A stretch of 64,000 bases of DNA from Candidatus Micrarchaeota archaeon (lineage in GTDB: Archaea; Micrarchaeota; Micrarchaeia; Anstonellales; Bilamarchaeaceae), in NCBI GenBank assembly GCA_038046805.1, contig JBBSVO010000004.1:97419-161418 (forward strand). The letters run 5' to 3'. Made by a program: the position numbers and the translations under genes. Shown here one piece after another: positions 24,448 to 64,000 of this stretch. The notes beneath the pieces were generated by a model that saw only the letters and a program-made list of their open reading frames with translations, was not told the origin of the DNA and made no database searches. Position 1 is the first letter of the stretch, and every line of letters begins with the position of its first letter.

Positions 24448-24507
24448 AATCTTTTCCCATTTTCAGGAAACTTTTGACCGATTCTTTCCCAAAATCGGGA
24501 AACTTTT
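24448..24507. repeat. 60-bp direct repeat, downstream copy
   Basis: AATCTTTTCCCATTTTCAGGAAACTTTTGACCGATTCTTTCCCAAAATCGGGAAACTTTT; 59/60 identical to 25748-25807. Confidence 0.92.
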
Positions 24508-24536
24508 ACTAAAACTGCTTGAAAAAAGCCAAAAGG

Positions 24537-25721: not shown

Positions 25722-25747
25722 AAGGTATATTCAGCGTATGTGTTTTT

Positions 25748-25807
25748 AATCTTTTCCCATTTTCAGGAAACTTTTGACAGATTCTTTCCCAAAATCGGGA
25801 AACTTTT
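25748..25807. repeat. 60-bp direct repeat, upstream copy overlapping the ATPase promoter
   Basis: Second copy exactly 1300 bp from the first; abuts the TATA-like ATTAAAAA about 25 nt upstream of the ATG. Confidence 0.92.
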
Positions 25808-46302: not shown

Positions 46303-46473
46303 CGTAGTAATTTAAATTTGCGAGACATAGAAAGATAGTGATCCAAGAAAGTTTTGCGAAACCTTCTTGTCTCAATACATAGCAAACATGAAGGTTTGGC
46401 AACGGATACTGATAATATATACCATTGCAGTGTTTTCGTGGTTTGCTATAATTATATCAGCAAGGTGTTTTGA

Positions 46474-47697: not shown

Positions 47698-47712
47698 TTG
47701 TTGGTGTAAAAC

Positions 47713-50256
47713 GTGAAGTTTTTCCATATCAGGCAGGAAAACGAAGACTACAAACTAGTTCGGCACTACTCAAATTCTGCCGAGCCACTGAGCGAAGGAA
47801 TCCTTGGAAGGTCTTTTAGAAAAATCAAAGACACTGTAGCAACGGTTGTAGCTGCAACAATGTTCTTCACGGCTGTTGGAGCTGCTCACTTCCGTTGCTC
47901 TTCATCTCAGGAAGAATCCGATGAGACTGGCCAAAGTTCTCAGGCAAACCAGACGATATCAAAAACCGGCAAAACAGATGAAAACGGAAAGGCTGTTTTT
48001 GAGGCAAATGGAAAAACCTATGAAATAAACCTTTTTGACCGTGAAAGCGGAAATCCGATTGCAGGAATGAACGTAATACTTTCAATAAAAGGAGATGGTG
48101 GATTTTACATCGTTCTGGATTCTAGCGGAACATACATTCCAAGAATTGCCGGCTTGGGGAAACCATCGGATGAGAAAACAGATTCTTCATCTATAAAAAA
48201 GGTGAGCAATGTTGTCATGCATAAACAAGGTGGAGTCTGCCAGTTGCCGGCAGGATTTTTCTCCACAGTTGATCTTTCAACAGACGAAGGAATGGCAAAG
48301 CTGGATGACTGGCATGAGGAATGGAAAAAAGACAAAGGAACAGAAAATCCATTAACAGAAAACTTCGAAAATAAAGCTGAAGTAGTTCTCTCCGAACTAA
48401 ACGATAAAATCCGATATATCCTTCAGCATATCATAGGAGATACCACTGCAAGAGCCACTGCTGAAATTCCAATTTATTTTGGCTTGATTAAGCTTGGAAA
48501 AGCTATCTCTACACTTTTTTCAAAGGCAAACTCTGGTCTTTTCATCATGGACATATGTGCTATGTCTGAACAGCTGGACTGGGCAGGCTATTACAAAGGC
48601 CTGTGCTACGAAAATTCTGATAAGTTTGAGGTATGGAAGCTTAAGGCGGCCAATTATTTTGAAGTGGATCCAATAATCCAAAACCCTATTTTGCTAGTTC
48701 TTCCTGTTCAGAGCAAGAATAACTGGACAGTACCAGTGGCTGGCATAAGCGGCAAAGTCGTATATGAATCACCTGAAGAGCAGTTTTTTGGCATGTTTTA
48801 TTCTGAAGTGGAACTAAAGCATGTTGATGGCAAGCTTCCAACGATTAAGTCGGAAACCCCACTTTTTTATCCTGGGATACCTGAAACCACATTCTCGTTT
48901 GTGGCAAGCGCGTGCGGGAACATAAATCCGACCTATGAATTAAAGGTAAATTATGCAGGGTCCTACGGTGAAGGGGGCGAGCCAAAATTCATGCTTACTG
49001 TAGAGGAAGGCGTAGAGTACACGGTAAATTTCAAAGTAAAGAAAGATTGCACTGGTGGTTATACTTCCAAGACTACTGGAACGAATGGGTTTGAAGTTGT
49101 GTGTAAATCGGATAGTATATCACAGAATAAAATAAACTGTGAAAACACAGTTATAGAAGCCTGTGATGGGATAAAAGTAATTGCAAAATATTCCAGCAGT
49201 ATCTGGTCATGCCCAGCAATAGATACAGATGGCAATCTATATGTACAGACCGGAAATATACTGACGGAAGAAGATAGTCTAATCGCATTAACGTCCAATC
49301 TGAGTGAAAGATGGTCTATTAAGGGAATAGATTTTGTAAATTTTGGCACTCTTCCCGGGATTCAACCCATCATATCGCAAACAAGCAACACTATCTATGT
49401 TATCTATTTTTCAACTTTGTATTCTATAGCCAATAACGGAACAATCAATTGGGATTTGGGGACTACAGGTCTTTCTATAGATGGATTAGCAATTGGAGCT
49501 AATGAAACGATTTACGTGGTAAGTGGGTTTGATATCTATGCAATAAGTCCAACAGGAAATATACTCTGGTCTGTTTATTTAAACACAAGCTTCATTCAAC
49601 CTACTGTTGACCTTGATGGAAATCTATACCTTGGGCAGGACTCGCCAGGCCTCATTTTTAAATTTCTGCCGGATTCTACTTATCAGTCTTGGCAATTACC
49701 GAGTTCAATTACCGATGCAATAAGTGAATTTGCGATTGCCAATGATAATATTTATGTCGGAACGACCGAAGGTCTTTATGCGTTGAATCGCGAGAGTGGG
49801 GCGGCGCAATTAAAATTTGATACAACCACGGCGATTGATGGAGCAGGTTCAGAGATAACTACCCCTCCTTCGTTTGATTCAGCCGGGAATATATATTTTG
49901 GAGTTAATAACTGGTTATTTTCCATAACCCAGCAAGGAGATTTGAGATGGAAAAAGCAAACCTCGGCGTTTATTACACAACCTACAATCGCATCCAATGA
50001 CGTAATATATTTTATCAACGTGGGCTATCCAGCGGAATTGCGAGCGATACGATCAGATGGAAGTGATATACTAACTACGAATATAAATAGTGGCAATTAC
50101 TGCCCGGCATATATCTCAAAAAATGGCACAATATACATCACAAACACTTCAGAGATATATGCCATTGAAGGTTCCTCGCCCCTAATGAATTCCCCCTGGC
50201 CGATGTACCGCCACGACCCTCAGAATTCCGGGAACGCAGGAACTCCTTTAAAATGA
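47713..50256 (+). CDS. Large surface protein with C-terminal PQQ-like beta-propeller
   Basis: Repeats PAIDTDGNLYV, IYAISPTGNILW, PTVDLDGNLY; terminal SPWPMYRHDPQNSG. Confidence 0.8.
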   Translation: MKFFHIRQENEDYKLVRHYSNSAEPLSEGILGRSFRKIKDTVATVVAATMFFTAVGAAHFRCSSSQEESDETGQSSQANQTISKTGKTDENGKAVFEANGKTYEINLFDRESGNPIAGMNVILSIKGDGGFYIVLDSSGTYIPRIAGLGKPSDEKTDSSSIKKVSNVVMHKQGGVCQLPAGFFSTVDLSTDEGMAKLDDWHEEWKKDKGTENPLTENFENKAEVVLSELNDKIRYILQHIIGDTTARATAEIPIYFGLIKLGKAISTLFSKANSGLFIMDICAMSEQLDWAGYYKGLCYENSDKFEVWKLKAANYFEVDPIIQNPILLVLPVQSKNNWTVPVAGISGKVVYESPEEQFFGMFYSEVELKHVDGKLPTIKSETPLFYPGIPETTFSFVASACGNINPTYELKVNYAGSYGEGGEPKFMLTVEEGVEYTVNFKVKKDCTGGYTSKTTGTNGFEVVCKSDSISQNKINCENTVIEACDGIKVIAKYSSSIWSCPAIDTDGNLYVQTGNILTEEDSLIALTSNLSERWSIKGIDFVNFGTLPGIQPIISQTSNTIYVIYFSTLYSIANNGTINWDLGTTGLSIDGLAIGANETIYVVSGFDIYAISPTGNILWSVYLNTSFIQPTVDLDGNLYLGQDSPGLIFKFLPDSTYQSWQLPSSITDAISEFAIANDNIYVGTTEGLYALNRESGAAQLKFDTTTAIDGAGSEITTPPSFDSAGNIYFGVNNWLFSITQQGDLRWKKQTSAFITQPTIASNDVIYFINVGYPAELRAIRSDGSDILTTNINSGNYCPAYISKNGTIYITNTSEIYAIEGSSPLMNSPWPMYRHDPQNSGNAGTPLK

Positions 50257-50289
50257 TGATGAAACGTTTATTTATCGTTGGTGAAAATT

Positions 50290-51495
50290 ATGAAAACCAT
50301 AGACGACTTGGATGTTAGGGGAAAGAGAATAGTTATTCGCGTTGATATCAATTCTCCTGTTGAGAAAGAGGGTGGAAAAATAGTCCTTAACCCACGGATT
50401 TTATCGCATGCACGAACCATACGAGAGCTTAGCCAAAAAGGCGCCCGTGTGGTCGTCATTGCGCATCAGGGACGAAAAGGAGACCCTGACTTTTTGGATT
50501 TGAAAGGGCACGCAGAAGTTCTTTCACAAGTTGTGAAGCACCCAATAACATTCATTGACGAAATTATAGGACCGCGCGCAAAGGCGGCAATACAAAACAT
50601 GACGGACGGGGAAGTCGTTTTGCTTGAAAATGTCCGCTTCCTTGATGATGAGACTAAAGGCAATGCGGAAGAGTCCGCGATTGTCCGGGAAATTGCACCG
50701 CTTGCGGATTATTTCTTCCTTGACGCGCTTTCAGTTGCGCACCGCGGGCATGCCTCGGTTGTCGGATTCACAAAAACTGTTCCAAGCGCGGCTGGCCGAG
50801 TACTAAAGGAAGAAGTCGATGCGCTTGATAAAATCATGGACAGCACAGACATCACGTTCGTTTTCGGAGGCTCAAAGCCAGAAGATTCCATGGAAATAAT
50901 GAAAAAATGGATGGAAGCCGGAAAGATAAAAAACGCCCTTGTTGGCGGAGTGCTTGGCATATTGTTCCTGAAGGCAAGCGGAGCAAATGTTGGGAAATCA
51001 GAGGCGTTCCTTGCATCAAAAGGTTTGCTTGAAAAATTAGGGGAAGTGAAAGTCATACTTGAAAAATACGGAGACAAAATCGTTATTCCGTCCGATTGCG
51101 GGATAAATATTGATGGAAAACGGGTTGATTGCGACATTTCCGATTCGGAGTGCATTGCAAACGGGGAAATATTCGATATCGGACCGAAAACAACGGAAAG
51201 ATACAGGAAAATCTTATCCGAAGCCAAAACAATAATGATAAACGGACCGCTAGGAGTTTATGAAATAGATGAATTCGCTACCGGAACAAAGAAAATTCTA
51301 AACACAATCGCGGACTGCACGAACTTCTCCATAGTTGGAGGCGGACACACGATAACAGCAATAGAAAAATTCGGGATTGATAAAACGAAATTCAGTTACA
51401 TCTCGCTGTCAGGAAAAGCGCTTATTGAATATCTGAGCGGAAAGGAATTAGTCGGGATAGCCGCATTGAAAGATAGTGCGAAGAGGCATTTCTAA
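50290..51495 (+). CDS. pgk: Phosphoglycerate kinase
   Basis: RVDINSP, AHQGR, LLENVRF, AHRGHAS, DIGPKT, GGGHT. Confidence 0.96.
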   Translation: MKTIDDLDVRGKRIVIRVDINSPVEKEGGKIVLNPRILSHARTIRELSQKGARVVVIAHQGRKGDPDFLDLKGHAEVLSQVVKHPITFIDEIIGPRAKAAIQNMTDGEVVLLENVRFLDDETKGNAEESAIVREIAPLADYFFLDALSVAHRGHASVVGFTKTVPSAAGRVLKEEVDALDKIMDSTDITFVFGGSKPEDSMEIMKKWMEAGKIKNALVGGVLGILFLKASGANVGKSEAFLASKGLLEKLGEVKVILEKYGDKIVIPSDCGINIDGKRVDCDISDSECIANGEIFDIGPKTTERYRKILSEAKTIMINGPLGVYEIDEFATGTKKILNTIADCTNFSIVGGGHTITAIEKFGIDKTKFSYISLSGKALIEYLSGKELVGIAALKDSAKRHF

Positions 51496-51509
51496 AGAGA
51501 TTGCAGGGT

Positions 51510-52619
51510 TTATCCTTCATCCGGCTTTGACGGAACCCAACCTAATTTTTTTACCCAGATATAAGACACTGCTATTGCAATAACCGTTGAAACCGTCAAT
51601 AGAGCAAGATACCACCCGGCATCCTGGGGCCCAAGTGCAAATGCAGAACTGCCCATAATCGTAGCGATTGTATTTGGAACAAGAACCGCCGTACCTATTA
51701 TTGTCAGATAGGTTACGACCATTGTAAGCCGATTGTTCAAAACCTGTAATTGATTATTGTATATGCTTTGCAGAACTTCCAGACCGCTCGCCAAAACCTC
51801 GCTCAAATGCTCTGCCAGACCGATTTGGGTATTTACCTCACTGCTCAATGCGTCCAACTGGTCCAGGAGACGATCTTCGTCTGTGAGTAGTACCGGATCA
51901 CCGTAACGAAGGGAGTTCAAAACATCTAAAGTGCTCCACAGAGAACCTAAATAGACTATAAGTGCGTGCTTCATCTGATGGATTTTTGGTCCGATTACAC
52001 CTCTCGGAGTTTTTGGATCTGCGAGAATTTGGCTTAACTGATCCCCATTTTCCTCGATTTCCCTTAAGTGGTCAAAATTTCGTCCGTTGTTTTCATCTAC
52101 AATCCTGATGAGAATTTTCGTAACCTTGTCCGCCGCAGGTTCATCCACCTTAATTTTTTTCATGAATGTTTCGGCATATCTTCTCAGATGGAAAAATCTC
52201 CTGACTTCGGTTCCGTGCAAAGTGAAGACGATATTGTTTTTTATGAGAATAAGAAGCGGGTTTACTTTTACATCAAAATGATTCACGATTACGGCTGGGA
52301 TAAGAATTCCGAGCTCTGAATCATTATCTACATAGGAACCACGTTTGTTGTTCAGCAGACTGCGAACAAGCTGCTTGCTAAAACCCATTGTTGAGGCAAT
52401 GGATTCTGCTTCTTTGTGAAGGTCTACGGCAACAAAATCAACCCATGAGACTGATGCCTCGTCTACCAAATCCTTAAACTCTGTAACGTTCCTTCCTTCC
52501 TGTTTTTTAGTGCCTGAATTTTCCAACAAAGAAACGCAGAATCCCTGTGATTCTACGGCGAGAACCAGTGCTTGCTGGTCTTTGAGCTTGAGTTTCTTCC
52601 CCAAGGTGTGTCTTACCAT
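51510..52619 (-). CDS. CorA-family divalent cation transporter
   Basis: Large soluble domain, LNNRLT and two C-terminal TMs; GMN replaced by GSS. Confidence 0.82.
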   Translation of the reverse strand: MVRHTLGKKLKLKDQQALVLAVESQGFCVSLLENSGTKKQEGRNVTEFKDLVDEASVSWVDFVAVDLHKEAESIASTMGFSKQLVRSLLNNKRGSYVDNDSELGILIPAVIVNHFDVKVNPLLILIKNNIVFTLHGTEVRRFFHLRRYAETFMKKIKVDEPAADKVTKILIRIVDENNGRNFDHLREIEENGDQLSQILADPKTPRGVIGPKIHQMKHALIVYLGSLWSTLDVLNSLRYGDPVLLTDEDRLLDQLDALSSEVNTQIGLAEHLSEVLASGLEVLQSIYNNQLQVLNNRLTMVVTYLTIIGTAVLVPNTIATIMGSSAFALGPQDAGWYLALLTVSTVIAIAVSYIWVKKLGWVPSKPDEG

Positions 52620-52670
52620 ACGGGAGAAAACGACAAGAAGATATAAATAGGTTGCTGGAGGAAACAAACT

Positions 52671-53066
52671 ATGCAGCTGCAAAATGAACTCAAGAATTTG
52701 GCTGGGCAGGCAAAAAAAAGAAAAGGCGTGCTGGCGATTTACTTATTCGGATCTGTTGCAAGAGGACATCCAAATGCAAAATCCGACATAGACATATGTA
52801 TAATTCCTGAAAAAGAAAAACTAGGTATGGACAGTATCATAGAAATGTTCGGCACTGCCAGCCCCAGTATTGATCTCGTGAATTTTTACAGACTACCTAT
52901 TCAGATGCGCTATCGGGTCTTTAAGGAAGGGAAATCAATATATGAAAAAGACAGAGGTCTGGTGTCTCGCATCATTTCAAAAACAATAAGCGAATATCTG
53001 GATATGAAACCAGGACTCGAAAGGATTTACAAAGCAATACTAAAGGGGAAGAGAAAACATGGATAA
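52671..53066 (+). CDS. Minimal nucleotidyltransferase (MNT antitoxin)
   Basis: LFGSVARG, SDIDI, IDLV. Confidence 0.9.
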   Translation: MQLQNELKNLAGQAKKRKGVLAIYLFGSVARGHPNAKSDIDICIIPEKEKLGMDSIIEMFGTASPSIDLVNFYRLPIQMRYRVFKEGKSIYEKDRGLVSRIISKTISEYLDMKPGLERIYKAILKGKRKHG

Positions 53067-53462
53067 GGAACGAATAGCCGCAATAATAAAAGGCATAGAA
53101 CAGAATCTCACTGAGGCAGAAGAACGCTTCAAAGACGGAGATGCATTTAATGACAAGATAAAATTTGATGCAGGTTGCATGTCCATATTCCAGTCAATAA
53201 ACCGATCCATAGACCTTGCTGAAGAGATTATCTCTTTGCTGAGGTTGCAGATTCCAGGAAGTTACAATGACTCGTTTGACATCCTGAAAAAAGCAAAAAT
53301 CATAAAAGAAGGCACCTGTGAAGAGATGAAAAACTTGTCAGATATAGGAATTTGATATCACACGAATATTATAATATAAGCCCTGAAGATGTGAAGAAGT
53401 TAATAAGGAGAATACATGCGATTGACGATTTTTTGAACGAAGCCAAAAGAGCAATGTTATAG
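53059..53462 (+). pseudogene. HEPN (DUF86) toxin, frameshifted at the A5 run 53329-53333
   Basis: The zero frame stops at 53355. The -1 frame continues LVRYRNLISHEYY...RAML* (RxxxxH motif) to TAG 53462. Confidence 0.85.
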
Positions 53463-54551
53463 TAATTTCACAAACTCGTCAAACAGGAACTTCGAATCAT
53501 GTGGTCCTGCTGATGCCTCTGGATGGTATTGGACTGAGAATATTGGCTTTGATACGTGGCGGATCCCTTCAACCGTATTATCGTTTGCGTGAATATGCGT
53601 AATTTCAAAATCCTTTGGCATGTTTTTTATCGCATAGCCATGGTTTTGGGTTGTGATTACGAGCCTGTTGCGGATTTTATCTAAGACCGGGTGATTTGAA
53701 CCGCGATGGCCGAACTTTAGTTTATAGGTATCTCCGCCAAATGCATGGGCGATTAGTTGGTGGCCAAGGCAGATTCCAAAAATCGGGTAGCTGATGAGTT
53801 CGCGAATTGTTTTGTGCTGAGCGGTAAGGATTGCCGGATCACCCGGACCGTTGGACAATAAGATTCCGTTTGGTTTATATGACTTGATTTGTTCCCCGGT
53901 CGCATCGTGCGGCAAAACTACAACTCGGATATTTCGCTTGACTAATTCGCGGATTATTGACATTTTCACTCCGAGATCAATGAGGACGACCGTTTGTTTT
54001 GCAGTCTTGTTTCCGAATTCCATTGGTTTTTTTACCGAAACTTTCTCAACGAAATTGATCGAGGAATATTCATAATCAATTGCGGAACTGATGGAAGCTT
54101 TGGAAAGTTCTCCTTCATATGTTATAAGAGTTGCTGGCATAACCCCGAAATTTCTTACCTTTCTTGTTAATGCGCGCGTGTCTATTCCATAGATTCCAGG
54201 CTTGTTGTGTTCTTTCAGGAATTCATCGATGGACTTTGACGCGTCCCTATCCGAAAAAACCTTGCTTGGTTGCCTTACGATGAATCCTTCTGCCTGGATT
54301 TTATCGCTTTCAAAATCGGTTTTGTTTATTCCGTAATTCCCGATTAGCGGATAGGTCATCATTAGTATTTGGCCCGCATAACTAGGATCAGTTAATGCCT
54401 CCTGATACCCCTGCATTGATGTGGTGAAAACCAGTTCTCCGATCGCAGTTCCGATTGCACCGAATCCTTTGCCATGGATTACGGTGCCGTCCTTTAGCAC
54501 AAGGACTGCCTTTTTACAATTGGTCTTGTGTCCAGAGTCTAGAGTCTTCAT
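53457..54551 (-). CDS. carA: Carbamoyl-phosphate synthase small subunit
   Basis: LTDPSYAGQI, GIDTRALT, SNGPGDP, GICLGHQ, QYHPEA. Confidence 0.97.
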   Translation of the reverse strand: MKTLDSGHKTNCKKAVLVLKDGTVIHGKGFGAIGTAIGELVFTTSMQGYQEALTDPSYAGQILMMTYPLIGNYGINKTDFESDKIQAEGFIVRQPSKVFSDRDASKSIDEFLKEHNKPGIYGIDTRALTRKVRNFGVMPATLITYEGELSKASISSAIDYEYSSINFVEKVSVKKPMEFGNKTAKQTVVLIDLGVKMSIIRELVKRNIRVVVLPHDATGEQIKSYKPNGILLSNGPGDPAILTAQHKTIRELISYPIFGICLGHQLIAHAFGGDTYKLKFGHRGSNHPVLDKIRNRLVITTQNHGYAIKNMPKDFEITHIHANDNTVEGIRHVSKPIFSVQYHPEASAGPHDSKFLFDEFVKLL

Positions 54552-54659
54552 TAGAATCAGAAATTAATTAGGGGAGGGAAGAGAATTAAAAGGTTGGGTT
54601 CCTGTTTCGCATTCCGAATTTCGCGTGTCGCGTTTTGAGTTTTACGCATCGTGTTTGAG

Positions 54660-54675
54660 ATTGTTTTTGAACCGC
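54660..54675 (+). repeat. Junction motif copy A (truncated, left boundary of the cassette array)
   Basis: ATTGTTTTTGAACCGC, identical to part of copy B. Confidence 0.55.
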
Positions 54676-54717
54676 GCGGATTGGTTCGCAAATGGGAAAC
54701 CGTTGACAAACGAGCTA

Positions 54718-54860
54718 TAGCAAACCGCGAAAGTAATGCAACCGAATGAGGTACATTGCCCGTGAATTGCAGTCGCGGTTTGCTAGGTAGTAAGACAAGA
54801 AAGTCCATGTTTGTCCGACGAATCGGACAAAATGCATCTTTTTGCTCAAAGCAAAAAGAT
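54718..54860. repeat. Hairpin cluster including a CGACGAATCG-loop hairpin of the REP-like family
   Basis: 13-bp inverted repeat TAGCAAACCGCGA/TCGCGGTTTGCTA; TTTGTCCGA-CGAA-TCGGACAAA; ATCTTTTTGC-TCAAA-GCAAAAAGAT. Confidence 0.65.
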
Positions 54861-54915
54861 TGTCGCAAAACTTTCTTGGATTGCTATATAATTACAAAAC
54901 GTTTTAAATTATCGG

Positions 54916-56517
54916 ATGGAATGTGCGGATATGGCCAAGGCAAAGGAGGTTCTAATTGCCGGTGCCGTCATTGTCACCGGTGCGTGGGCAGTCAATCACT
55001 ATAAGCCTGAAATTTTCGCAAGAGGGGCAAGGTTAATTGAATCCATTGTAAAACCCGTTGGAAACGCAATAAGAAGAGAAATAAAAGATTTTATCCCATT
55101 GGCAGACGAAGAAGCGGCCAGAACAGGCAAATACTTCTGCAAAAGGACAGAAATGGAAGACAACATGCCATCAAAAGCGATTACTGCTAAAGAAGAGGAT
55201 TATGTTTCGGTGTGTATCTGGGATAATGGGGAATTTATAGCAACAAAACATTCTACCGGAAGAGAGATTACGCTGAGCGAGAAATGGTTTCCTCCGGATA
55301 CTTATCATTACTGGATGAAACTTCTTGACATTCGCGGGGATGTAACTGTCACATTTGATGGAGACGACAAATTTGAAATGGAGGAAGAGGTCATCAAAGC
55401 TAAAGACAAAGGCGGCTCAGAGAAATTTACTGTGGAATACGAATGCGAGTACGAAGAACCTTGTGGAGGAGACAACATTCGCGCAGTTTTCATAAGACCA
55501 TGCGAAAAGCAGTTGTTCAGAGACGGTGCTTTCGCAAACGGGGACCTCGGAACAAGAGTTGACGGCGGAAGCCTTGAAAGCGTCTGCGAAGACCTTAAGG
55601 AAAGCGAGATAACAGATGTTTTTGTTGCTTTCAAAGTAGACCATGAAGGGAAGGGTTGCGGAGACTACGGGGAACTGCTTTATGACAGTGAAAAATACCC
55701 TCAGAATGTAAGCGAAAGTTTCAGAAAAGCATTTGAAAGCGGAATAGACCCTATAAAAGAGCTGATGAAAGCATGTAACGGAAAGGGAATGACGTTTCAT
55801 GCATGGTTTCCTGTGTTTGCTGACAGGATAGCCGCAAAGATTGCGGGGGTTTCTGCGAGAAATGAGGCTTTTGGATGTGGTGGGGAACCTATGTTTAGCG
55901 AGGTTTTTGCAGACCCTGAAAATGAAGCGGTTAGAAAATATCAAATTGAGCTTTTAGAAGAGATAATGCATAGGTATTATGGCATAGCCGGAGTAAATTT
56001 AGATTACATTCGATATCCGAACCCTGGTGATGGAGATATACCAACTTATTACACTGTAAAGGTAACTCCACAAGCAATCTTAGATTTTGTAACAATGGTG
56101 AAACATCATGTTACAAGAAGAATTTCTGCAGATGTATTTGCTGAGGAAAGTACAAGAATCAACTCCGGCCAGAATGGAATTTTGGGTTATGTTGACATAA
56201 TTCTGCCGATGTCATACACTTATTTCGGAGATTTTGATGGTCCGAGTGACGTCAAGTTTTGGACACAGGACGCGTATTCTCTTTATCCTTTAAAACAGAT
56301 TGTACCAGTATTGAGAGGGTGGATTGAAGGGATTAACGATTATCGTTCTGATGGATTAATAGATGATTTAACGCAGGATGTTGAAGCAGCAAAGAAAGGC
56401 AGAGCGAATGGTTACGGGATATTTACTTATGAATCGTTGTTATCCGAGCAGTGGAAATACCAAAGATTGGCGGACATCGTGAAAATAATAGAACCTAAAA
56501 ACAAGGAAGGAGAGTAG
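54916..56517 (+). CDS. GHL10 (DUF187/YddW-like) glycoside hydrolase-like protein, copy 1 (start may be 54931)
   Basis: IRAVFI, DPIKELMKAC...FHAWF, FADPEN, GVNLDYIRYP, ISADVF, VDIILPMSY; N-terminal hydrophobic anchor. Confidence 0.75.
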   Translation: MECADMAKAKEVLIAGAVIVTGAWAVNHYKPEIFARGARLIESIVKPVGNAIRREIKDFIPLADEEAARTGKYFCKRTEMEDNMPSKAITAKEEDYVSVCIWDNGEFIATKHSTGREITLSEKWFPPDTYHYWMKLLDIRGDVTVTFDGDDKFEMEEEVIKAKDKGGSEKFTVEYECEYEEPCGGDNIRAVFIRPCEKQLFRDGAFANGDLGTRVDGGSLESVCEDLKESEITDVFVAFKVDHEGKGCGDYGELLYDSEKYPQNVSESFRKAFESGIDPIKELMKACNGKGMTFHAWFPVFADRIAAKIAGVSARNEAFGCGGEPMFSEVFADPENEAVRKYQIELLEEIMHRYYGIAGVNLDYIRYPNPGDGDIPTYYTVKVTPQAILDFVTMVKHHVTRRISADVFAEESTRINSGQNGILGYVDIILPMSYTYFGDFDGPSDVKFWTQDAYSLYPLKQIVPVLRGWIEGINDYRSDGLIDDLTQDVEAAKKGRANGYGIFTYESLLSEQWKYQRLADIVKIIEPKNKEGE

Positions 56518-56922
56518 ATGAAACTTACAAAATTTGATATTTTCATATTTACACTAATATTGGTGTATGTGATTGTTCTTGGTTCAGCCACAATCTCCCT
56601 GCTAGGAGATATAAACATAATTTTTACAAATAAAGTTCCGATAGAATCATATGTTGAATATGTATCCAACATATTCACGTATGAAGACCGATACCGTTCC
56701 TATGCCTTAGAAATCTGTAAAATCGTGGATTCTGATGCAGAGAGTTATAGAGTTATAAGCGGAAACTGGGGGAACAGTGTGGAAACTCACTTCTTTTCAA
56801 ACGGAACGAAAATATGCACATTTTCATCACATATAGAGATGAGGGATGGTGTAAAGTACTATTATGAAAAAGCAGGGTGTCCACCAATAGAGAAATGTAG
56901 GATTATTCTTGGGGGGAGTTAA
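56518..56922 (+). CDS. Small membrane-anchored protein, paralogue of 60665
   Basis: N-terminal TM; C-terminal YYEKAGCPPIEKCRIILGGS. Confidence 0.75.
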   Translation: MKLTKFDIFIFTLILVYVIVLGSATISLLGDINIIFTNKVPIESYVEYVSNIFTYEDRYRSYALEICKIVDSDAESYRVISGNWGNSVETHFFSNGTKICTFSSHIEMRDGVKYYYEKAGCPPIEKCRIILGGS

Positions 56923-56933
56923 ATATTGGTTTA

Positions 56934-56977
56934 TCGGATTTATTGTTTTTGAACCGCTCTCTGGTCCGCCGTAAGGT
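56934..56977 (+). repeat. Junction motif copy B
   Basis: TCGGATTTATTGTTTTTGAACCGCTCTCTGGTCCGCCGTAAGGT followed by TATATATA. Confidence 0.9.
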
Positions 56978-57004
56978 TATATATAGCCTCAGATTCGCAG
57001 TGAA

Positions 57005-57226
57005 ATGAGTCAGTGCTATATGGTCAGGGAAGGAAAAATTACAGTGAACCTCATAAATTATTCGGTTCACTATGTCGCGACCGACGCATCGGTCACGAGC
57101 ATGTTCATGAACGAATCTTCGTTCATGACATCTATCCAACCAACACCTGTAAATCCAAGGTATTTAATCCTGAAAACTTTGTTGGTTGGATATAGGATGC
57201 TTAAATCTGCCGTAGAAGTCCGATAA
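57005..57226 (+). CDS. Short ORF or gene fragment downstream of the junction B TATA box
   Basis: ATG about 25 nt after the TATA; no motif; 3' end overlaps hicA. Confidence 0.3.
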   Translation: MSQCYMVREGKITVNLINYSVHYVATDASVTSMFMNESSFMTSIQPTPVNPRYLILKTLLVGYRMLKSAVEVR

Positions 57227-57431
57227 ATTCGTCCCTTGTTAGTTCCATATCACGTATGATTTTTCTTAAAAGGCCTCTGCCGATTTCTCTGCCTGCATGC
57301 ACCGGGACGGTTATGAGAACTCCCTTTTCGTTCTTGAATTGAACATGACTGCCACTTTGCCTTACCATCGTATATCCTTTAAGAACGAGTATTTTTATCA
57401 GGGTTTTTGCATCCACCAAGGGAAGCTTCAT
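57201..57431 (-). CDS. hicA: HicA family toxin
   Basis: RQSGSHVQFK, TVPVH. Confidence 0.9.
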   Translation of the reverse strand: MKLPLVDAKTLIKILVLKGYTMVRQSGSHVQFKNEKGVLITVPVHAGREIGRGLLRKIIRDMELTRDEFIGLLRQI

Positions 57432-57643
57432 GCAGAAACCTCTATTTTCTGTACCCCTATAAACTCATGTGGCTTAACTTCTTTTTGACCTTGCAGACAA
57501 AGACTTATTACTTCCTTAATATTTTCAAGAACTTCCTGCAGGGTTTTTCCCTGGGTATAGCAACCTTTCAAATCCGGAACTTCTGCGACATACATTCCGT
57601 CCTCGTCTTTTTCAATGATTGCTGTAAAACTATATTTTTGCAT
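57428..57643 (-). CDS. hicB: HicB family antitoxin (short, no DNA-binding domain)
   Basis: DEDGMYVAEVPDLKGCYTQGKTLQEVLENIKE. Confidence 0.9.
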   Translation of the reverse strand: MQKYSFTAIIEKDEDGMYVAEVPDLKGCYTQGKTLQEVLENIKEVISLCLQGQKEVKPHEFIGVQKIEVSA

Positions 57644-57703
57644 ATTTAACACCTATTTATTAAGACGGGCTTTGTTTTTAATCTTTTCCGATTTTTTAAT
57701 TCG

Positions 57704-57760
57704 TTTAACGCTCGGATTTATTGAAGTTGAACCGCTCGTTGGTCCGCCGTAAGGTATATA
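57704..57760 (+). repeat. Junction motif copy C
   Basis: TTTAACGCTCGGATTTATTGAAGTTGAACCGCTCGTTGGTCCGCCGTAAGGTATATA. Confidence 0.9.
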
Positions 57761-57783
57761 TGCATTAACGTGCACAAGTTGAG

Positions 57784-58008
57784 TTGGTGCAGACTATGAA
57801 ACTAAGAGTTGTCCTTGAGCAGGATGAAGATGGTGTCTATGTTGCCGTTTGTCAAACTTTGCCCGGCTGCGTGTCACAGGGGAAAACAAGAGACGAAGCT
57901 TTAAGGAATATAAAAGATGCAATAAGCGGATATTTGCACAGCTTGAAACAGCATAATGAGCCGGTGCCCCCATCAATACAGGAAGAGATAGTTGATGTTG
58001 ATGCCTAA
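57784..58008 (+). CDS. hicB: HicB family antitoxin (short)
   Basis: DEDGVYVAVCQTLPGCVSQGKTRDEALRNIKDAI. Confidence 0.9.
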   Translation: MVQTMKLRVVLEQDEDGVYVAVCQTLPGCVSQGKTRDEALRNIKDAISGYLHSLKQHNEPVPPSIQEEIVDVDA

Positions 58009-58234
58009 GCTGCCAATTTTATCAGGAGCAGAACTTGTCAAACTTCTTTCAAAGATAGGTTACTTACCAGACCACCAAACTGGAAGCCATATTATACTGA
58101 GGCAGGAAAAAGAGCCGCACAGACGATTAACTGTTCCGAATCACAGGGAAATTTCAAAAGGAACACTACTGGCAATCATAAAACAAGCAGGACTGACACG
58201 AGAAGAGTTTGAAATGCTGTATTATAAAAGATAG
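58001..58234 (+). CDS. hicA: HicA family toxin
   Basis: MPKLP, HQTGSHIIL, TVPNH, GTLLAIIKQAG. Confidence 0.9.
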   Translation: MPKLPILSGAELVKLLSKIGYLPDHQTGSHIILRQEKEPHRRLTVPNHREISKGTLLAIIKQAGLTREEFEMLYYKR

Positions 58235-58267
58235 ATTTGTTCTTTGAACCGCTCTCTGGTCCGCCGT
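58234..58267 (+). repeat. Junction motif copy D
   Basis: GATTTGTTCTTTGAACCGCTCTCTGGTCCGCCGT, 34/34 identical to copy E; begins at the hicA stop. Confidence 0.9.
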
Positions 58268-58311
58268 GGGCTAGCAGGCACATGAGATTGCAAAACATTT
58301 TAAATCGTCTG

Positions 58312-59895
58312 ATGGAATATGCGAACATGAAAGCAAAAGATGCTCTGATTGTAGGTGCGACTATTGCCGCAGGTGCGTGGGCAGTCAATCACTATAAGCC
58401 TGAAATTTTCGCAAGAGGGGCAAGGTTAATTGAATCCATTGTAAAACCCGTTGGAAACGCAATAAGAAGAGAAATAAAAGATTTTATCCCATTGGCAGAC
58501 GAAGAAGCGGCCAGAACAGGCAAATACTTCTGCAAAAGGACAGAAATGGAAGACAACATGCCATCAAAAGCGATTACTGCTAAAGAAGAGGATTATGTTT
58601 CGGTGTGTATCTGGGATAATGGGGAATTTATAGCAACAAAACATTCTACCGGAAGAGAGATTACGCTGAGCGAGAAATGGTTTCCTCCGGATACTTATCA
58701 TTACTGGATGAAACTTCTTGACATTCGCGGGGATGTAACTGTCACATTTGATGGAGACGACAAATTTGAAATGGAGGAAGAGGTCATCAAAGCTAAAGAC
58801 AAAGGCGGCTCAGAGAAATTTACTGTGGAATACGAATGCGAGTACGAAGAACCTTGTGGAGGAGACAACATTCGCGCAGTTTTCATAAGACCATGCGAAA
58901 AGCAGTTGTTCAGAGACGGTGCTTTCGCAAACGGGGACCTCGGAACAAGAGTTGACGGCGGAAGCCTTGAAAGCGTCTGCGAAGACCTTAAGGAAAGCGA
59001 GATAACAGATGTTTTTGTTGCTTTCAAAGTAGACCATGAAGGGAAGGGTTGCGGAGACTACGGGGAACTGCTTTATGACAGTGAAAAATACCCTCAGAAT
59101 GTAAGCGAAAGTTTCAGAAAAGCATTTGAAAGCGGAATAGACCCTATAAAAGAGCTGATGAAAGCATGTAACGGAAAGGGAATGACGTTTCATGCATGGT
59201 TTCCTGTGTTTGCTGACAGGATAGCCGCAAAGATTGCGGGGGTTTCTGCGAGAAATGAGGCTTTTGGATGTGGTGGGGAACCTATGTTTAGCGAGGTTTT
59301 TGCAGATCCGGAGAATGAGAAAGTTGTCTCATATCTGTTAGATCTCATTGACGAGATCAGAGTAAAGTATTATCCACTGGCAGGCATAAATTTAGATTAC
59401 ATCCGATACCCTGGAGCGACTGATGGCGATATCCCCGCGTATTATACTGTAAAAGTAAATCCAGTAGCAATCCAAAACTTTGTAATAGAAGCAGAAAAAA
59501 GAGCCAGAACTCTTTCTGCCGACGTATTTCCTTCAGAAAGCAAAAGAATAGAGGTAGGCCAGAATGGGATTTTACAATATATGGATATGATAATGCCAAT
59601 GACATATGTGGGGCTTACAGTTGATGATTCTGATTGGATCGCAATGTGGGTAAATGACATTTATTATTCATACCCTCTCAGGGATATCGTGCCGTTATTA
59701 AAAGGCTGGGGGACAGGCCAAGATTTGATTGAAGGTTTAAGCAAAGATGTTAAAGCTGCTAAAGATGGACGTGCAAATGGTTACGGAATATTTACGTATG
59801 AATCGCTGCTAACAGAACAAGGGGTGTATCAAAAATTAGTGGATGTTAAAAAAATAATAGAACCGGAGGAAGAAAAAGATGGCAAAGTTCATTAG
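58312..59895 (+). CDS. GHL10-like glycoside hydrolase-like protein, copy 2 (start may be 58327)
   Basis: Protein identical to copy 1 from GAWAVNHY to FADPENE, then divergent (GINLDYIRYP, LSADVF, MDMIMPMTY). Confidence 0.75.
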   Translation: MEYANMKAKDALIVGATIAAGAWAVNHYKPEIFARGARLIESIVKPVGNAIRREIKDFIPLADEEAARTGKYFCKRTEMEDNMPSKAITAKEEDYVSVCIWDNGEFIATKHSTGREITLSEKWFPPDTYHYWMKLLDIRGDVTVTFDGDDKFEMEEEVIKAKDKGGSEKFTVEYECEYEEPCGGDNIRAVFIRPCEKQLFRDGAFANGDLGTRVDGGSLESVCEDLKESEITDVFVAFKVDHEGKGCGDYGELLYDSEKYPQNVSESFRKAFESGIDPIKELMKACNGKGMTFHAWFPVFADRIAAKIAGVSARNEAFGCGGEPMFSEVFADPENEKVVSYLLDLIDEIRVKYYPLAGINLDYIRYPGATDGDIPAYYTVKVNPVAIQNFVIEAEKRARTLSADVFPSESKRIEVGQNGILQYMDMIMPMTYVGLTVDDSDWIAMWVNDIYYSYPLRDIVPLLKGWGTGQDLIEGLSKDVKAAKDGRANGYGIFTYESLLTEQGVYQKLVDVKKIIEPEEEKDGKVH

Positions 59896-60619
59896 TATTT
59901 TGATCGTAGCCTTCCTGGTTTTTCTAGCAGGTTGCATAAAAAACAGTACAACTGATAACTACGATAATATGGAAGAAATTTTCAAAAAAGCCATAGAAAC
60001 CAAAAATAAAACCATTTGTGGTAAGGCATTGGGATTTTCCAATAGGTGCTACAACCAATTAGCAAGAATAGAAAATAGACCAGATGAATGTAAACCAATC
60101 CTTTCTTCTGAACCAACAAAAGGCACATGCCATTATGCCCCGGGGGATTTTACGCCAAATTACTGCTCAATTTACATAAAATACGGTGGTTATGAAGAAG
60201 ATTATGGTGCGTGCATAGCAGAGGCATCAGATTATAACGTAAAATTGTGCACGCAGCTAAACGATATGAAACAACAGGAACTGTGCTTAGTCACAGTTTA
60301 TCTAAAAAAAGAAAACCTGACAGATCCCGAAGTCTGTCCCCTTCTGGAAGAGAAGAATAGACAGGACGATTGTAAATTAATTATAATAAAAAATAGTTGT
60401 GATGCAAATCAGTCAGACTGCAAAGTACGACGATGCCTTGATTTGGGATTCTCAGATATTTCCAGTTTAGATCTTTGCAAACAAAGGACTGCCAAGACCA
60501 CATGCAAAAACGATACAAAACAGTGCTCGGTTGATTTGTGCGAAGAACTTAACCTAAGCAATCAAAAAGAACTGGAAAGATGCGAAGAGATGGTATTTCG
60601 CAGTATTGACAAGAACTAG
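59879..60619 (+). CDS. Cysteine-rich lipoprotein
   Basis: Lipobox FLAGC; many regularly spaced Cys. Confidence 0.75.
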   Translation: MAKFISILIVAFLVFLAGCIKNSTTDNYDNMEEIFKKAIETKNKTICGKALGFSNRCYNQLARIENRPDECKPILSSEPTKGTCHYAPGDFTPNYCSIYIKYGGYEEDYGACIAEASDYNVKLCTQLNDMKQQELCLVTVYLKKENLTDPEVCPLLEEKNRQDDCKLIIIKNSCDANQSDCKVRRCLDLGFSDISSLDLCKQRTAKTTCKNDTKQCSVDLCEELNLSNQKELERCEEMVFRSIDKN

Positions 60620-60664
60620 ATGAGATCATAGAGAGAATAGAACCCGAAAAAGAGGGCGAACACG

Positions 60665-61060
60665 ATGAAAAGTAAATTATTGCTCATTCTTATAATTTTC
60701 CTAGGAATCGTTCTGGGTTCACTCCTGATTTTCCTATTGTCTGATTTATATATGATTTTTTCCAACAAAATCCCTCTTTCGGCATATTTTGAATATACTT
60801 CATACAAACTTGAGTATGGTTGTCTGGATTGTTTTCAGCGGATGGAATCGTGCAGAGTTAAAGATAAAAGTACAATAGATTACAAGGTTATTGGTGGAGA
60901 AAAAGCAGAGGTTGGCAAAGAAACACATTTTGATATAAATGGAATGGAGATATGCAGTTTCGTTTGGTCTTATGGAATGGCAGATGCGTTTGGGTATTAT
61001 TACAAAAAAGCAGGGTGCCCACAGATAGAAAAATGCAAGATTATTTTCGGGGGGAGTTGA
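60665..61060 (+). CDS. Small membrane-anchored protein, paralogue of 56518
   Basis: N-terminal TM; C-terminal YYKKAGCPQIEKCKIIFGGS. Confidence 0.75.
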   Translation: MKSKLLLILIIFLGIVLGSLLIFLLSDLYMIFSNKIPLSAYFEYTSYKLEYGCLDCFQRMESCRVKDKSTIDYKVIGGEKAEVGKETHFDINGMEICSFVWSYGMADAFGYYYKKAGCPQIEKCKIIFGGS

Positions 61061-61074
61061 ATATTTTATTTATA

Positions 61075-61119
61075 GGATTTGTTCTTTGAACCGCTCTCTG
61101 GTCCGCCGTAAGGTATATA
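61075..61119 (+). repeat. Junction motif copy E
   Basis: GGATTTGTTCTTTGAACCGCTCTCTGGTCCGCCGTAAGGTATATA. Confidence 0.9.
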
Positions 61120-61144
61120 ATAGTATATTACACTAATTATAACT

Positions 61145-61783
61145 ATGCGATTAAGGAGTAAGGCATTACTTGCAGTCAGTGCTGTTGCATTCATTAGATG
61201 CTCTGCTCCTTTGATTGAGGATGCACATGCGCAGGAGAGACCAGCAGTTACTGTACCAGTATTACCTGCACAGACACAGCCAACTGCTAAACCAGAGCAA
61301 GACGCGAAACCCGAGGAGGAAGCAAAACAGGAACCAAAATGCACTGGAGTTACTGTTGAAGAGATTAGAAGATGGGATGAGGAAACGACACGAGCTGGTC
61401 AAAGAGAGGAAGCATGTTTAATGACTGGAATTGAGTGCCTTTTTATAAGAACTTTAGAAGGGCATTATTTTGCTATGTCAGACATTGCAAAAAAGTTTAT
61501 GGTAATTAGTTTTGGATATAGAAAAGAGACCGTACAACCAACCGAAAAAATAGAACTTGGGATATTATTTGAAGACTACAAACATACTCCTGAAAAAGTG
61601 CCAATTAGTATCAGATTAGTTCGAAAATACGAAACTTCCGGTGTAACTATCTATGCATTTACTGTGCCTACCTCAACTGAAAAAGGAGAATCCCCTATTT
61701 TTAGCGAAACGATGCCTTATGCTTTTATAAGTGGTTTCCGAAGCAATACTTTAGATAAAGGTTATGGTCGTTTATGCCCTTGA
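61145..61783 (+). CDS. Putative lipoprotein, constant N-terminus/variable C-terminus family, copy 1
   Basis: MRLRSKALLAVSAVAFIRCSAPLIE identical to 62746; Pro/Glu linker; unrelated C-terminal domain. Confidence 0.75.
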   Translation: MRLRSKALLAVSAVAFIRCSAPLIEDAHAQERPAVTVPVLPAQTQPTAKPEQDAKPEEEAKQEPKCTGVTVEEIRRWDEETTRAGQREEACLMTGIECLFIRTLEGHYFAMSDIAKKFMVISFGYRKETVQPTEKIELGILFEDYKHTPEKVPISIRLVRKYETSGVTIYAFTVPTSTEKGESPIFSETMPYAFISGFRSNTLDKGYGRLCP

Positions 61784-61794
61784 GATAGACATTG

Positions 61795-62700
61795 TTATCT
61801 TTTTGTCTTAGTTATATATTGTTCAGCTAGTGCCAGAGCCCGACGAGCTTCTAAGTCGTTACCGTGGACGCTCAAACCAAATCGTTTAGAAAACAAAGCG
61901 AGTCGCTGTAATTCTTCCTCATTCTTAACCAGAAATTCCTTTTCATTCTCTGTAAATTGTTTTCTTTCTGCGGTTTTTCTCAAAATACCTCTAAGTTCTT
62001 CACCATCCAGCAGTTCTGGTTTAATCGTCTTATCTCCTAATTTCCCAACATCCTCCAACACTGCCCTTTCTAATCTCACTGCTTCATCAGTTGATTTGTC
62101 AGGCATTCGATGATACTCTGCTAGTTTGCTTTCAATCGCCAATCGTGCGGAATCCCAATCCTTGCTCAGGTAACGCTCTGTTTCATGCTGGGATATTTCA
62201 TGTCCTGTTGGCTCTCTGGCATGCTGTGCTCTGAAATTGTCAAATGATTGGGCGAACTCTGCTCTGGATTGCTCTGCTTTGGATTCTGCCTTTTCGTAGA
62301 CTTCCATTGCTCCTTTTACCTTTGGATTATCAAATAATTCAGGCTTGGATGATTGCAATGCAGGGATATCTTTGGACGATATATCCTCTCCGGTTGCCTT
62401 TGATAAATGCTTTACCAAACTATCTCTTGCTATGTCAGATGCCCCTTGTGCTACTTCAAATTCATGATGGGATTTTGCTAACCTGTTATCTTGATTTATT
62501 TCCTGCTTGTATTGCTCTGAAACACTGCGGATATGGTCTGGTGGTGCTCCTTGGAGCGATTCTGGCGGGCTTGTGACTTGGGTTTGCTCTGCTGTTCTCA
62601 ATGCTCTTTCAACATGGTCCGAGACTGCTTGTTTTATTACTGGGTTTGTGGATTCGGAGACTGATTTAACGCTCGGACTTGTTGGATTTGAACCGCACGC
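61795..62700 (-). CDS. Start-less (orphan) C-terminal module, paralogue of 63621-64000
   Basis: The frame is open upstream of the TTG at 62601 through junction F (GSNPTSPSVKS) to a stop near 62725, with no upstream ATG. Shares EYHRxxDKxxDEAVRLERAVLED with the last ORF. Confidence 0.65.
   Translation of the reverse strand, partial: ACGSNPTSPSVKSVSESTNPVIKQAVSDHVERALRTAEQTQVTSPPESLQGAPPDHIRSVSEQYKQEINQDNRLAKSHHEFEVAQGASDIARDSLVKHLSKATGEDISSKDIPALQSSKPELFDNPKVKGAMEVYEKAESKAEQSRAEFAQSFDNFRAQHAREPTGHEISQHETERYLSKDWDSARLAIESKLAEYHRMPDKSTDEAVRLERAVLEDVGKLGDKTIKPELLDGEELRGILRKTAERKQFTENEKEFLVKNEEELQRLALFSKRFGLSVHGNDLEARRALALAEQYITKTKR
62665..62696 (+). repeat. Junction motif copy F (divergent)
   Basis: TTTAACGCTCGGA (shared with C) plus TTGAACCGC, followed by the TATA-like TAGGTATTTA. 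Confidence 0.75.
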
Positions 62701-62745
62701 TCGGAAACGATAGGTATTTATTATTTATTAACTCTAAATACCACT

Positions 62746-63615
62746 ATGCGATTAAGGAGTAAGGCGTTACTTGCAGTCAGTGCTGTTGCATTCATTAGAT
62801 GCTCTGCTCCTTTGATTGAATCGGCACATCCTGAGCCAACTGAAAAAGTCGGCTCAAGCTATTCAGAACCAAATAGAATAGAAGACGGAAAACGAAATCA
62901 AGATTTAGTTGGTTCTGAACATGCGCAGGAAAGACCTGCGGTTACTGCGCCAGTATTACCGGCACAACCAAGCGAGAAGCAGAAAGAAGAACCTGCGAAA
63001 CCAAAGCCTCAGGACTCAAGACCAGCAGACTGTCCCTCGGTGGTTTATGAGCCTGATGAGAGATGTGGGTTGGAAAGGAGAGAGTGGAAAGGCGGACCGA
63101 TTAGCGAGGAGGAATTGAATGAGGGAGAGAGAATATTATTTATCAAAAAAGAATTCAGAGATTGCTTAGGTCGATGGGCAAAGGAAGAACAAAGAAGAAC
63201 AGAAACGTATGACCGTACTGGAAAGTGGCCTAGAAAATCAGGAATAACATGTAAAACGGAGTCTAAAAAAATTCCTAAAACACATCGAGCACTTATGAAA
63301 TGCGGACCAGATGAGCATACGAACGCTTTTCAATTAACAACCGATGGAGCAGAGATAGCAATCATTGATGGAAACGATATTTTTATTAAATGGGATAATA
63401 CTCCCGCAACCTTGGTGATAGTTATTAAAAATGAAAAAACAAATGAAGAAACAACGTATCTGTTTCGACTCGTTAACCAACCAAGGTACGCGGTTATACC
63501 AAATGGAGATGGTAAAACTAGTGATTTAGTAGTCTGGAGTGGAGGCAAACAGATACGAATTAATCTAGATGTAAGTTGTACGCCCGTCTATAGTGAATAC
63601 CCGGATATTAAATAA
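62746..63615 (+). CDS. Putative lipoprotein, constant N-terminus/variable C-terminus family, copy 2
   Basis: Same first 25 aa and HAQERPAVTxPVLPAQ as 61145; different C-terminal domain. Confidence 0.75.
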   Translation: MRLRSKALLAVSAVAFIRCSAPLIESAHPEPTEKVGSSYSEPNRIEDGKRNQDLVGSEHAQERPAVTAPVLPAQPSEKQKEEPAKPKPQDSRPADCPSVVYEPDERCGLERREWKGGPISEEELNEGERILFIKKEFRDCLGRWAKEEQRRTETYDRTGKWPRKSGITCKTESKKIPKTHRALMKCGPDEHTNAFQLTTDGAEIAIIDGNDIFIKWDNTPATLVIVIKNEKTNEETTYLFRLVNQPRYAVIPNGDGKTSDLVVWSGGKQIRINLDVSCTPVYSEYPDIK

Positions 63616-63620
63616 AAAAA

Positions 63621-64000
63621 TTAGTCTAATCTCTCAGCAGGTTGTTCAATGCTTCGTTTTAATAACGCGCCCCTACTCTCTCCTAACTTTTTATAATGAG
63701 ATAAACTTAGATTCTTTGAAAGTTTATCTATTTCGTGTAACTCATCACCATGCTTTTCTATGAATGCATGCATTTTTTGTATTTCTTCATCTCCATGTTT
63801 TTCAATGAACTCATCAAACTTCTTTTTTGACGAGAGCGCGTCTCCCCTTTCCACCAACAATCTCGCTCCCTCTTCATCCATTATCTTCGGATTTATCTTC
63901 TCATTTCCGCTCACCCTCCCCATATCCTCCAACACTGCCCTCTCCAATCTCACAGCCTCATCACTTCCCTTATCAGCTAACCTATGATATTCAGTTAACT
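63621..64000 (-). CDS. C-terminal end of a gene starting outside the window
   Basis: Frame open to the window edge: LTEYHRLADKGSDEAVRLERAVLEDMG...; diverges from its paralogue after this motif. Confidence 0.75.
   Translation of the reverse strand, partial: LTEYHRLADKGSDEAVRLERAVLEDMGRVSGNEKINPKIMDEEGARLLVERGDALSSKKKFDEFIEKHGDEEIQKMHAFIEKHGDELHEIDKLSKNLSLSHYKKLGESRGALLKRSIEQPAERLD

Follow-up and report, generated by a model that had tools for sequence, protein, structure and literature searches.

A variable gene-cassette array punctuated by a short repeated site in a Micrarchaeota genome

The stretch analysed here (the window) is 64,000 nucleotides long and forms the right end of contig JBBSVO010000004.1, positions 97,419 to 161,418, of a Candidatus Micrarchaeota genome (contig C4 of genome G000, an assembly of 1.2 Mb that is 86% complete). 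From position 54660 to its right end the window carries gene modules, among them toxin-antitoxin pairs, glycoside hydrolase-like genes and lipoproteins, that are separated by same-orientation copies of a short motif. This is a real, variable cassette locus. Its content differs from that of the corresponding locus in a second genome of the same genus (G001), and flank homology between the two ends at the motif, bearing out a sequence-only reading of the window that had proposed a recombination-built cassette locus in an archaeon. What the array achieves resembles the product of an integron, but it passes neither the attC nor the IntI test. We read it, with a probability of roughly 0.55, as an accretion by short-homology recombination that duplicates its target and needs neither a dedicated integrase nor a new attachment site.

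Layout of the array and its right end

The 9-bp core of the motif, TTGAACCGC, is found six times in the array, always on the plus strand and always at a module boundary, with starts at 54667, 56949, 57727, 58244, 61086 and 62688 and a spacing of 517–2842 bp. The same six copies had been listed by the sequence-only reading, whose coordinates are the starts of extended motifs and not of the core. That a longer motif exists is true of sites B to E, which share a 24-mer. It matches the window four times, where chance would give 0.01 on average (none of 100 shuffles reaches four); elsewhere in G000 it has one copy, on contig C5 (site G, the seventh copy). Sites A and F share only the core with the rest, and the core alone is not junction-specific, with 75 copies genome-wide. 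The layout is as follows.

53457..54551, minus strand: carA, the conserved left flank of the array, with a single core word at 53696; the same flank is present in G001
54660..54689, plus strand: site A, core at 54667, second half degenerate, without TATA, 16 bp in common with B
54713..54889, no strand: element resembling a miniature inverted-repeat transposable element (MITE), with terminal inverted repeats and partial copies on contigs C13, C6 and C7
54916..56922, plus strand: cassette 1, a DUF4015/GHL10-like glycoside hydrolase (54916–56517) and a 134-residue membrane protein (56518–56922)
56934..56984, plus strand: site B, full 24-mer at 56949 and a TATA variant; 51 bp at 88% with C
57036..57196, no strand: dispersed repeat resembling a repetitive extragenic palindrome or MITE
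57201..57652, minus strand: cassette 2, hicB-hicA, reversed
57704..57762, plus strand: site C, 24-mer at 57727 and a box like the B recognition element (BRE) and TATA; left flank in common with B (15 bp) and F (23 bp)
57784..58234, plus strand: cassette 3, hicB-hicA
58234..58267, plus strand: site D, 34 bp identical to E, ending directly after the 24-mer, without TATA
58312..61060, plus strand: cassette 4, a second DUF4015/GHL10-like gene, a Cys-rich lipoprotein and a 131-residue membrane protein
61076..61122, plus strand: site E, 24-mer at 61086 and a BRE/TATA-like box some 30 nt ahead of the start codon of the lipoprotein
61145..61783, plus strand: lipoprotein 1, 212 residues, no family
61795..62670, minus strand: orphan C-terminal piece 1, from a giant membrane protein, with constant part and variable 84-residue tip
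62665..62724, plus strand: site F, core at 62688, second half diverged, TATA-like box
62746..63615, plus strand: lipoprotein 2, 289 residues, no family
63621..64000, minus strand: orphan C-terminal piece 2, running on through a collapsed repeat to site G (C5) and then the giant gene (C2)

HicA and HicB score above their Pfam cut-offs, as the sequence-only reading would have it. The two genes that it assigned to GHL10 pass DUF4015 but fall below the GHL10 cut-off (25 and 23 bits, cut-off 27.9). They share 935 identical bp (54979–55913 and 58372–59306), beyond which identity is 54%–68%; contigs built from reads show eight differences inside it, and assembly collapse may therefore account for some of the identity. 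A short open reading frame that had been counted as a gene after site B overlaps the dispersed repeat at 57036..57196, which occurs at seven other places in G000 and in 18 of the 27 BLAST rows in G001, and on this ground it is probably not a gene.

The convergent genes at the right end do not stand as orphan genes in their own right. Contig-end overlaps lead from C4 through a collapsed repeat to C5, which carries site G, lipoprotein 3 and tip 3, and on to the end of C2. In run X8 one contig joins the end of C4 to site G, and the collapsed repeat has about three times single-copy depth in run X5. On C2 a reading frame of at least 1726 residues continues straight into the orphan sequence, and the convergent orphans are therefore alternative C-terminal ends of a giant membrane protein. 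Each consists of a constant part followed by 84–100 variable residues, and the two genomes together supply five different tips after a shared motif. The right part of the array thus has all the parts by which orphan arrays of the Rhs and type VI secretion system (T6SS) type are structurally defined, namely a full-length gene, a constant region, variable tips and downstream orphans.

The N-terminal 400 residues of the giant protein have matches in 53 of 61 genomes. Pfam gives no match on tips 1 and 2 or on the 1726 residues of the giant protein, and NCBIfam none on the giant protein. Among 20 regions of relatives, none has a tip array behind the giant gene; one of the genomes, G054, has a single displaced C-terminus there. 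Over five modules taken from both genomes, the more alike the lipoproteins are, the more alike are their tips (5 of 120 permutations), a pattern that linkage could produce by itself. Relatives of the lipoproteins number three proteins, all matching lipoproteins of these arrays; the Atlas gave no usable match, and the genome scan with lipoprotein 2 as the query gave no relative. A complex prediction for lipoprotein 3 and tip 3, folded without alignments, scored 0.00 and says nothing for or against binding. A further lipoprotein with a convergent orphan is found in G000 at C7:135151–137180, its insertion accompanied by the duplication of 113 bp from the 3′ end of a host gene.

Variation of the array and anatomy of the site

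A search of 61 genomes with the 24-mer, allowing up to three mismatches, found five matches in G000, three in G001 and a single, unrelated-looking match in one further genome. In G001, the sites come after the same genes as in G000: pgk, corA, nucleotidyltransferase-HEPN and carA. Between the G001 sites lie a HEPN/nucleotidyltransferase pair in reverse orientation, an ATPase_2-DUF234 gene and a lipoprotein with its tip. A metagenome contig of the same lineage (L018) adds a fourth site and a second such lipoprotein and tip module. Homology of the carA flank between the two genomes stops at the base before the first G001 site, and the GHL10-like module of G001 sits at another locus. With different cassettes and flank homology ending at the site, gene order varies between these two genomes and its breaks coincide with the motif; the alternative considered by the sequence-only reading, a fixed order among relatives, does not apply. 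Three of the six rows of the metagenome scan are the one contig L018 and a fourth (L021) is of the same lineage, while the remaining two (L019 and L020) are chance matches in bacterial-type genes. The genome-contig scan gave one Ca. Micrarchaeota contig whose sites are arranged as in L013, and which is not counted as independent. Contigs of four runs from four studies, none of which is marked as the source, were also placed on 55930–64000; one spans B, C and D, another reaches E, and the array is unchanged in all four read sets. The short contigs of run X13 reach 16 of the 30 bins, and gaps there are no evidence.

The right half of the site consists of the BRE/TATA-like promoter belonging to the resident lipoprotein gene; at E, F and G it stands some 30 nt ahead of the start codon. 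The TATA is lost at A, D and the first G001 site, where the core is kept. Sequence shared between sites ends at staggered points, 9, 24, 26, 29 or 34–36 nt from the core start on the right and 0–23 nt from it on the left. Some neighbouring sites have private variants in common (D and E, 34 bp at 100%; B and C, 51 bp at 88%). Treating the 24-mer as two tandem genome-wide words fails, as its second half scores −1.8 to 5.3 versus 17–20 for the first.

None of the attC, clustered regularly interspaced short palindromic repeat (CRISPR), tRNA or Rfam readings fits the site. Thirteen folds of 11 sites gave z-scores from −1.31 to +1.59, none significant, and thus no hairpin of the attC type; Rfam has no match across 44000–64000. 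For CRISPR or a casposon, the G000 assembly yields no Cas1 (PF01867), and the spacing of the sites is not that of uniform short spacers. The sequence-only reading had likewise held that the motif is neither attC nor a CRISPR repeat. Resolvase and IS110 families were not found in G000 either.

It is conceivable that a tyrosine recombinase acts in trans on a degenerate 45–55-bp site, in the manner of a cluster of attC sites lacking an integron integrase (CALIN) but without attC. Recombinases exist in the genome: G000 encodes three XerA-like proteins of 402–403 residues, scoring 107–117 bits against an equivalog cut-off of 220. The same orientation of the sites, the 0.5–2.8-kb cassettes and the toxin-antitoxin cargo would suit such an enzyme, as would a weak 8-6-8 pseudo-palindrome around a variable 6-mer that can be read from the alignment in B, C and F. 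However, this pseudo-palindrome is present in only 3 of 11 sites, and the site fails the Xer/dif criterion of two inverted arms around a 6-bp spacer with fixed ends, since its ends are staggered. No recombinase gene adjoins the array; the nearest is about 73 kb away. As to IntI, the three recombinases score 46–51 bits on TIGR02249 against a cut-off of 265, with the best stretch confined to the N-terminal half, in a genome that is 86% complete. One of the three lies between 38-bp repeats behind a tRNA-like 3′ end (C6:164696–168550), and is part of an ordinary integrated element with its own tRNA-type repeat pair. The site has no match in the viral contigs scanned, a second array described below has other flanks, and duplications free of the motif are common. 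We regard a recombinase acting in trans as unlikely.

A genus-restricted word, a second array and word-free repeats

The core belongs to one family with TTGTTCCGC (134 copies) and TTGAGCCGC (63 copies), and the genus-wide word can be written in degenerate form as TTGWDCCGC. Inside called frames the three members exceed synonymous shuffles 4- to 8-fold (57 versus 13, 118 versus 18 and 53 versus 6), on both strands and in most frames. A 12-mer form, TTGWDCCGCWCG, has 76 copies in G000 and 56 in G001, compared to 0–11 in each of 174 other genomes of the order; its reversed-pattern control has 2 and 1. A 293-kb sample of G001 gave 213 kb of alignment at 81% identity, in which 31 of 62 sites are still a motif in the ortholog, versus 67 of 294 letter-shuffled controls. 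The sequence-only reading had allowed that the motif might be scattered genome-wide as a promoter element; the core is indeed scattered, but mostly inside genes and in all frames, and the 24-mer is confined to the array. Along the chained contigs the word shows no strand polarity, but GC skew is equally flat. Four palindromes in intergenic DNA of G000 (C2:51698, C4:86558, C6:130176 and C6:132769) are made from the core word and lie near other small hairpin repeats. A link to a C5-methylase, as for HIP1, was rejected: PF00145 is present in 1 of 31 genomes and not in this genus.

The second array was found from the assembly graph rather than by the motif, and lies between primase genes and a gene for a protein bearing a signal peptide (G000 C10:1–1100, C15, C16 and C3:219900–222541, loci L015 and L016; G001 loci L022 and L023). 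Its boundaries carry the same word with other flanks, and its cassettes (HEPN/MNT pairs, hicBA, a RelE-like gene and paired-gene duplicates) differ between the two genomes. In G001 the word marks two of the boundaries, while a host 3′ end is repeated at others. Degenerate heptamer-repeat tracts, possibly terminators, adjoin genes and the sites of this array, and are seen in the window at 54600–54660 and in other intergenic regions. Among 51 repeat pairs with a copy outside called frames, eight carry the word in each copy, compared to 0.48 expected, and every one of the eight comes from the two arrays. These pairs are not independent, so the link between word and arrays rests on two loci.

Elsewhere the same anatomy appears without the word. 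In at least 8 of 14 inspected loci of G000, accessory genes lie between locus-specific repeats of 27–113 bp, and the word is in the repeat in 0 of 14; two of the 20 regions of relatives are built alike, with repeats of 53 and 122 bp. In two duplications of coding sequence, most differences between the copies fall on third codon positions (4 of 5 and 5 of 7), as they would between two alleles. Individual loci of this general kind include an AAA_14/DUF4143 ATPase (PADLOC PDC-S01-like) in the window at 24448–25807, between 60-bp direct repeats of 98% identity and without the word; a second copy of a 122-bp stretch from within the giant gene, placed after a new C-terminus and an ATPase (L056, in G054); and an ATPase behind a 53-bp copy of the start of the next gene (L053, in G002). 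L049, in G031, has a 52-bp hairpin-like repeat in three copies.

The word might instead be a functional signal, like an uptake sequence or a Chi site, that places or stabilises DNA ends, making the segments that bear it hotspots and serving as a 'self' tag for cassettes. Its restriction to the genus, its excess on both strands and its retention between orthologs speak for this, as do its persistence where the TATA is lost and its presence in both arrays of both genomes together with its absence inside the six cassettes (none in 9.3 kb, where about 2.6 would be expected). Read on its reverse strand, the word includes the GCGG that PMC3458573, in the part consulted, gives as the critical core of the uptake sequence of Haemophilus, a resemblance only. 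On the other side, there are only about 331 copies of the degenerate 9-mer, unevenly spaced (coefficient of variation 1.11), and their density is alike in shared and unshared DNA (2.74 versus 3.05 per 10 kb). UvrD_C was not found in G000, nor were ComEC and DprA, and a CedA-like match in the membrane-protein cluster before the giant gene (L014:1–6077, C2) is weak (E 0.004, 16.8 bits, cut-off 330). The giant gene beside this cluster is present across the order, whereas the word is specific to the genus, and the tie of the word to cassettes comes from two arrays. We think a signal function distinctly unlikely.

Origin of the array and comparison with known systems

Short-homology accretion fits the observations best. 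Under this reading, cassettes would accrete at a hotspot bounded by carA on one side and by the 3′ end of the giant membrane-protein gene on the other. The repeated site would be the host's own 25–55 bp or so before the resident lipoprotein gene, combining the TTGWDCCGC word with the BRE/TATA-like promoter, and each cassette does lie between two copies of this host piece. Incoming DNA from a relative may have been held by a homology anchor on one side and joined over a few bases on the other. For arrays of the Vibrio T6SS, a one-sided anchor model has been proposed, the arrays being likened to Rhs orphan strings and integrons and the event being rare where measured (PMC5361080, in the part consulted). 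Alternatively, a small circle bearing the host piece could integrate by one crossover, and our data fail to separate the two routes. Either would duplicate the host piece and push older modules aside, and the repeats would then permit later gain or loss by ordinary recombination, with toxin-antitoxin cassettes slowing loss if integron arrays are a guide. The same process acting on the giant gene would leave spare C-terminal tips, each with its convergent lipoprotein, and a spare tip could replace the expressed one through the shared constant region. Of the two explanations offered by the sequence-only reading, a novel site or short homology, the second is thus the better fit, and a dedicated site is disfavoured by the staggered ends, by the distance to any recombinase and by the locus-specific repeats found elsewhere.

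Several points weigh against short-homology accretion. Both multi-cassette arrays bear the word in their repeat, which plain short-homology recombination does not predict. Sites preceded by unrelated cassettes have left flanks in common (C with B and F; D with E), as a real two-armed site would give, and the three XerA-like recombinases could act in trans. A third coding duplication has no third-position bias (2 of 5). The contigs of all four runs show no cassette-skipping joint at a motif, such as the sequence-only reading had suggested looking for, contigs being a form of the data that drops rare variants. The missing ComEC and DprA, in an assembly that is 86% complete, bear on the route of DNA entry, and the comparison within the genus is one of two genomes.

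A plain promoter or operator copied by tandem duplication, giving a co-regulated cluster of paralogs without special mobility, would account for the BRE/TATA-like right half, the paralogy of several modules and the unchanged array in the read sets, but we consider it highly improbable, as the repeat precedes unrelated and reversed genes, outlives the loss of the TATA and brackets non-paralogous cassettes that differ between genomes, with the GHL10-like module of G001 placed elsewhere.

More speculatively, and on balance doubtfully, the genus could have an uptake- or Chi-like self signal that is read at DNA import or end processing, possibly by the CedA/VirB6-like cluster before the giant gene. 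Segments bearing the word would then act, without an integrase, as platforms for cassettes, taking up defence genes and exchanging the tips of a giant contact protein together with their partner lipoproteins. The genus-restricted word is a testable candidate for the target of a sequence-reading DNA machine in archaea. How 1-Mb DPANN genomes gain and shuffle genes is largely an open question, and this locus attains an integron-like result apparently without an integrase. It also holds variable tips in reserve, in the manner of Rhs, for a giant membrane protein that is a candidate for host or kin recognition. The literature searched (supplements not covered) holds no description of such arrays or of the word in Micrarchaeota, and none was found of an uptake- or Chi-like self signal in archaea.

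Uptake sequences are expected to be dense and evenly spread, with a tightly conserved core. Those of Pasteurellaceae and Neisseriaceae resemble the word in being non-palindromic, restricted to a taxon, enriched inside genes on both strands and built on GCGG; the word has fewer, more degenerate and unevenly spaced copies, and lacks the company of ComEC and DprA (PMC3458573, in part). Chi sites are likewise non-palindromic, taxon-restricted and enriched in genes; they are expected to be polar with respect to replication and to go with an enzyme of the RecBCD/AddAB type, and UvrD_C was not found in G000. Xer/dif (pdif) modules are accessory modules, with toxin-antitoxin cargo, bracketed by short sites on which a recombinase acts in trans, but those sites are 11-6-11 palindromes, and no such palindrome is conserved in this array, whose site ends are staggered.

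Integrons and CALINs, including archaeal ones, share with the array the same-orientation sites, cassettes of one to three genes, toxin-antitoxin cargo, variable content and absence of an adjacent integrase. Judged by the portion of PMC9668308 that we drew on, the array differs in that its site does not fold, that there is no IntI, that the conserved part stands before the cassette and carries a promoter, and that repeats are locus-specific. The likeness to Vibrio T6SS orphan arrays and Rhs displacement lies in a constant 5′ gene with variable 3′ tips, strings of orphans with their partners, and displacement that needs no integrase. Against what the available part of PMC5361080 describes, the Micrarchaeota array has an archaeal host, a convergent lipoprotein as partner and no detected toxin domain; unrelated cassettes join it, and a short promoter-bearing repeat marks every junction.

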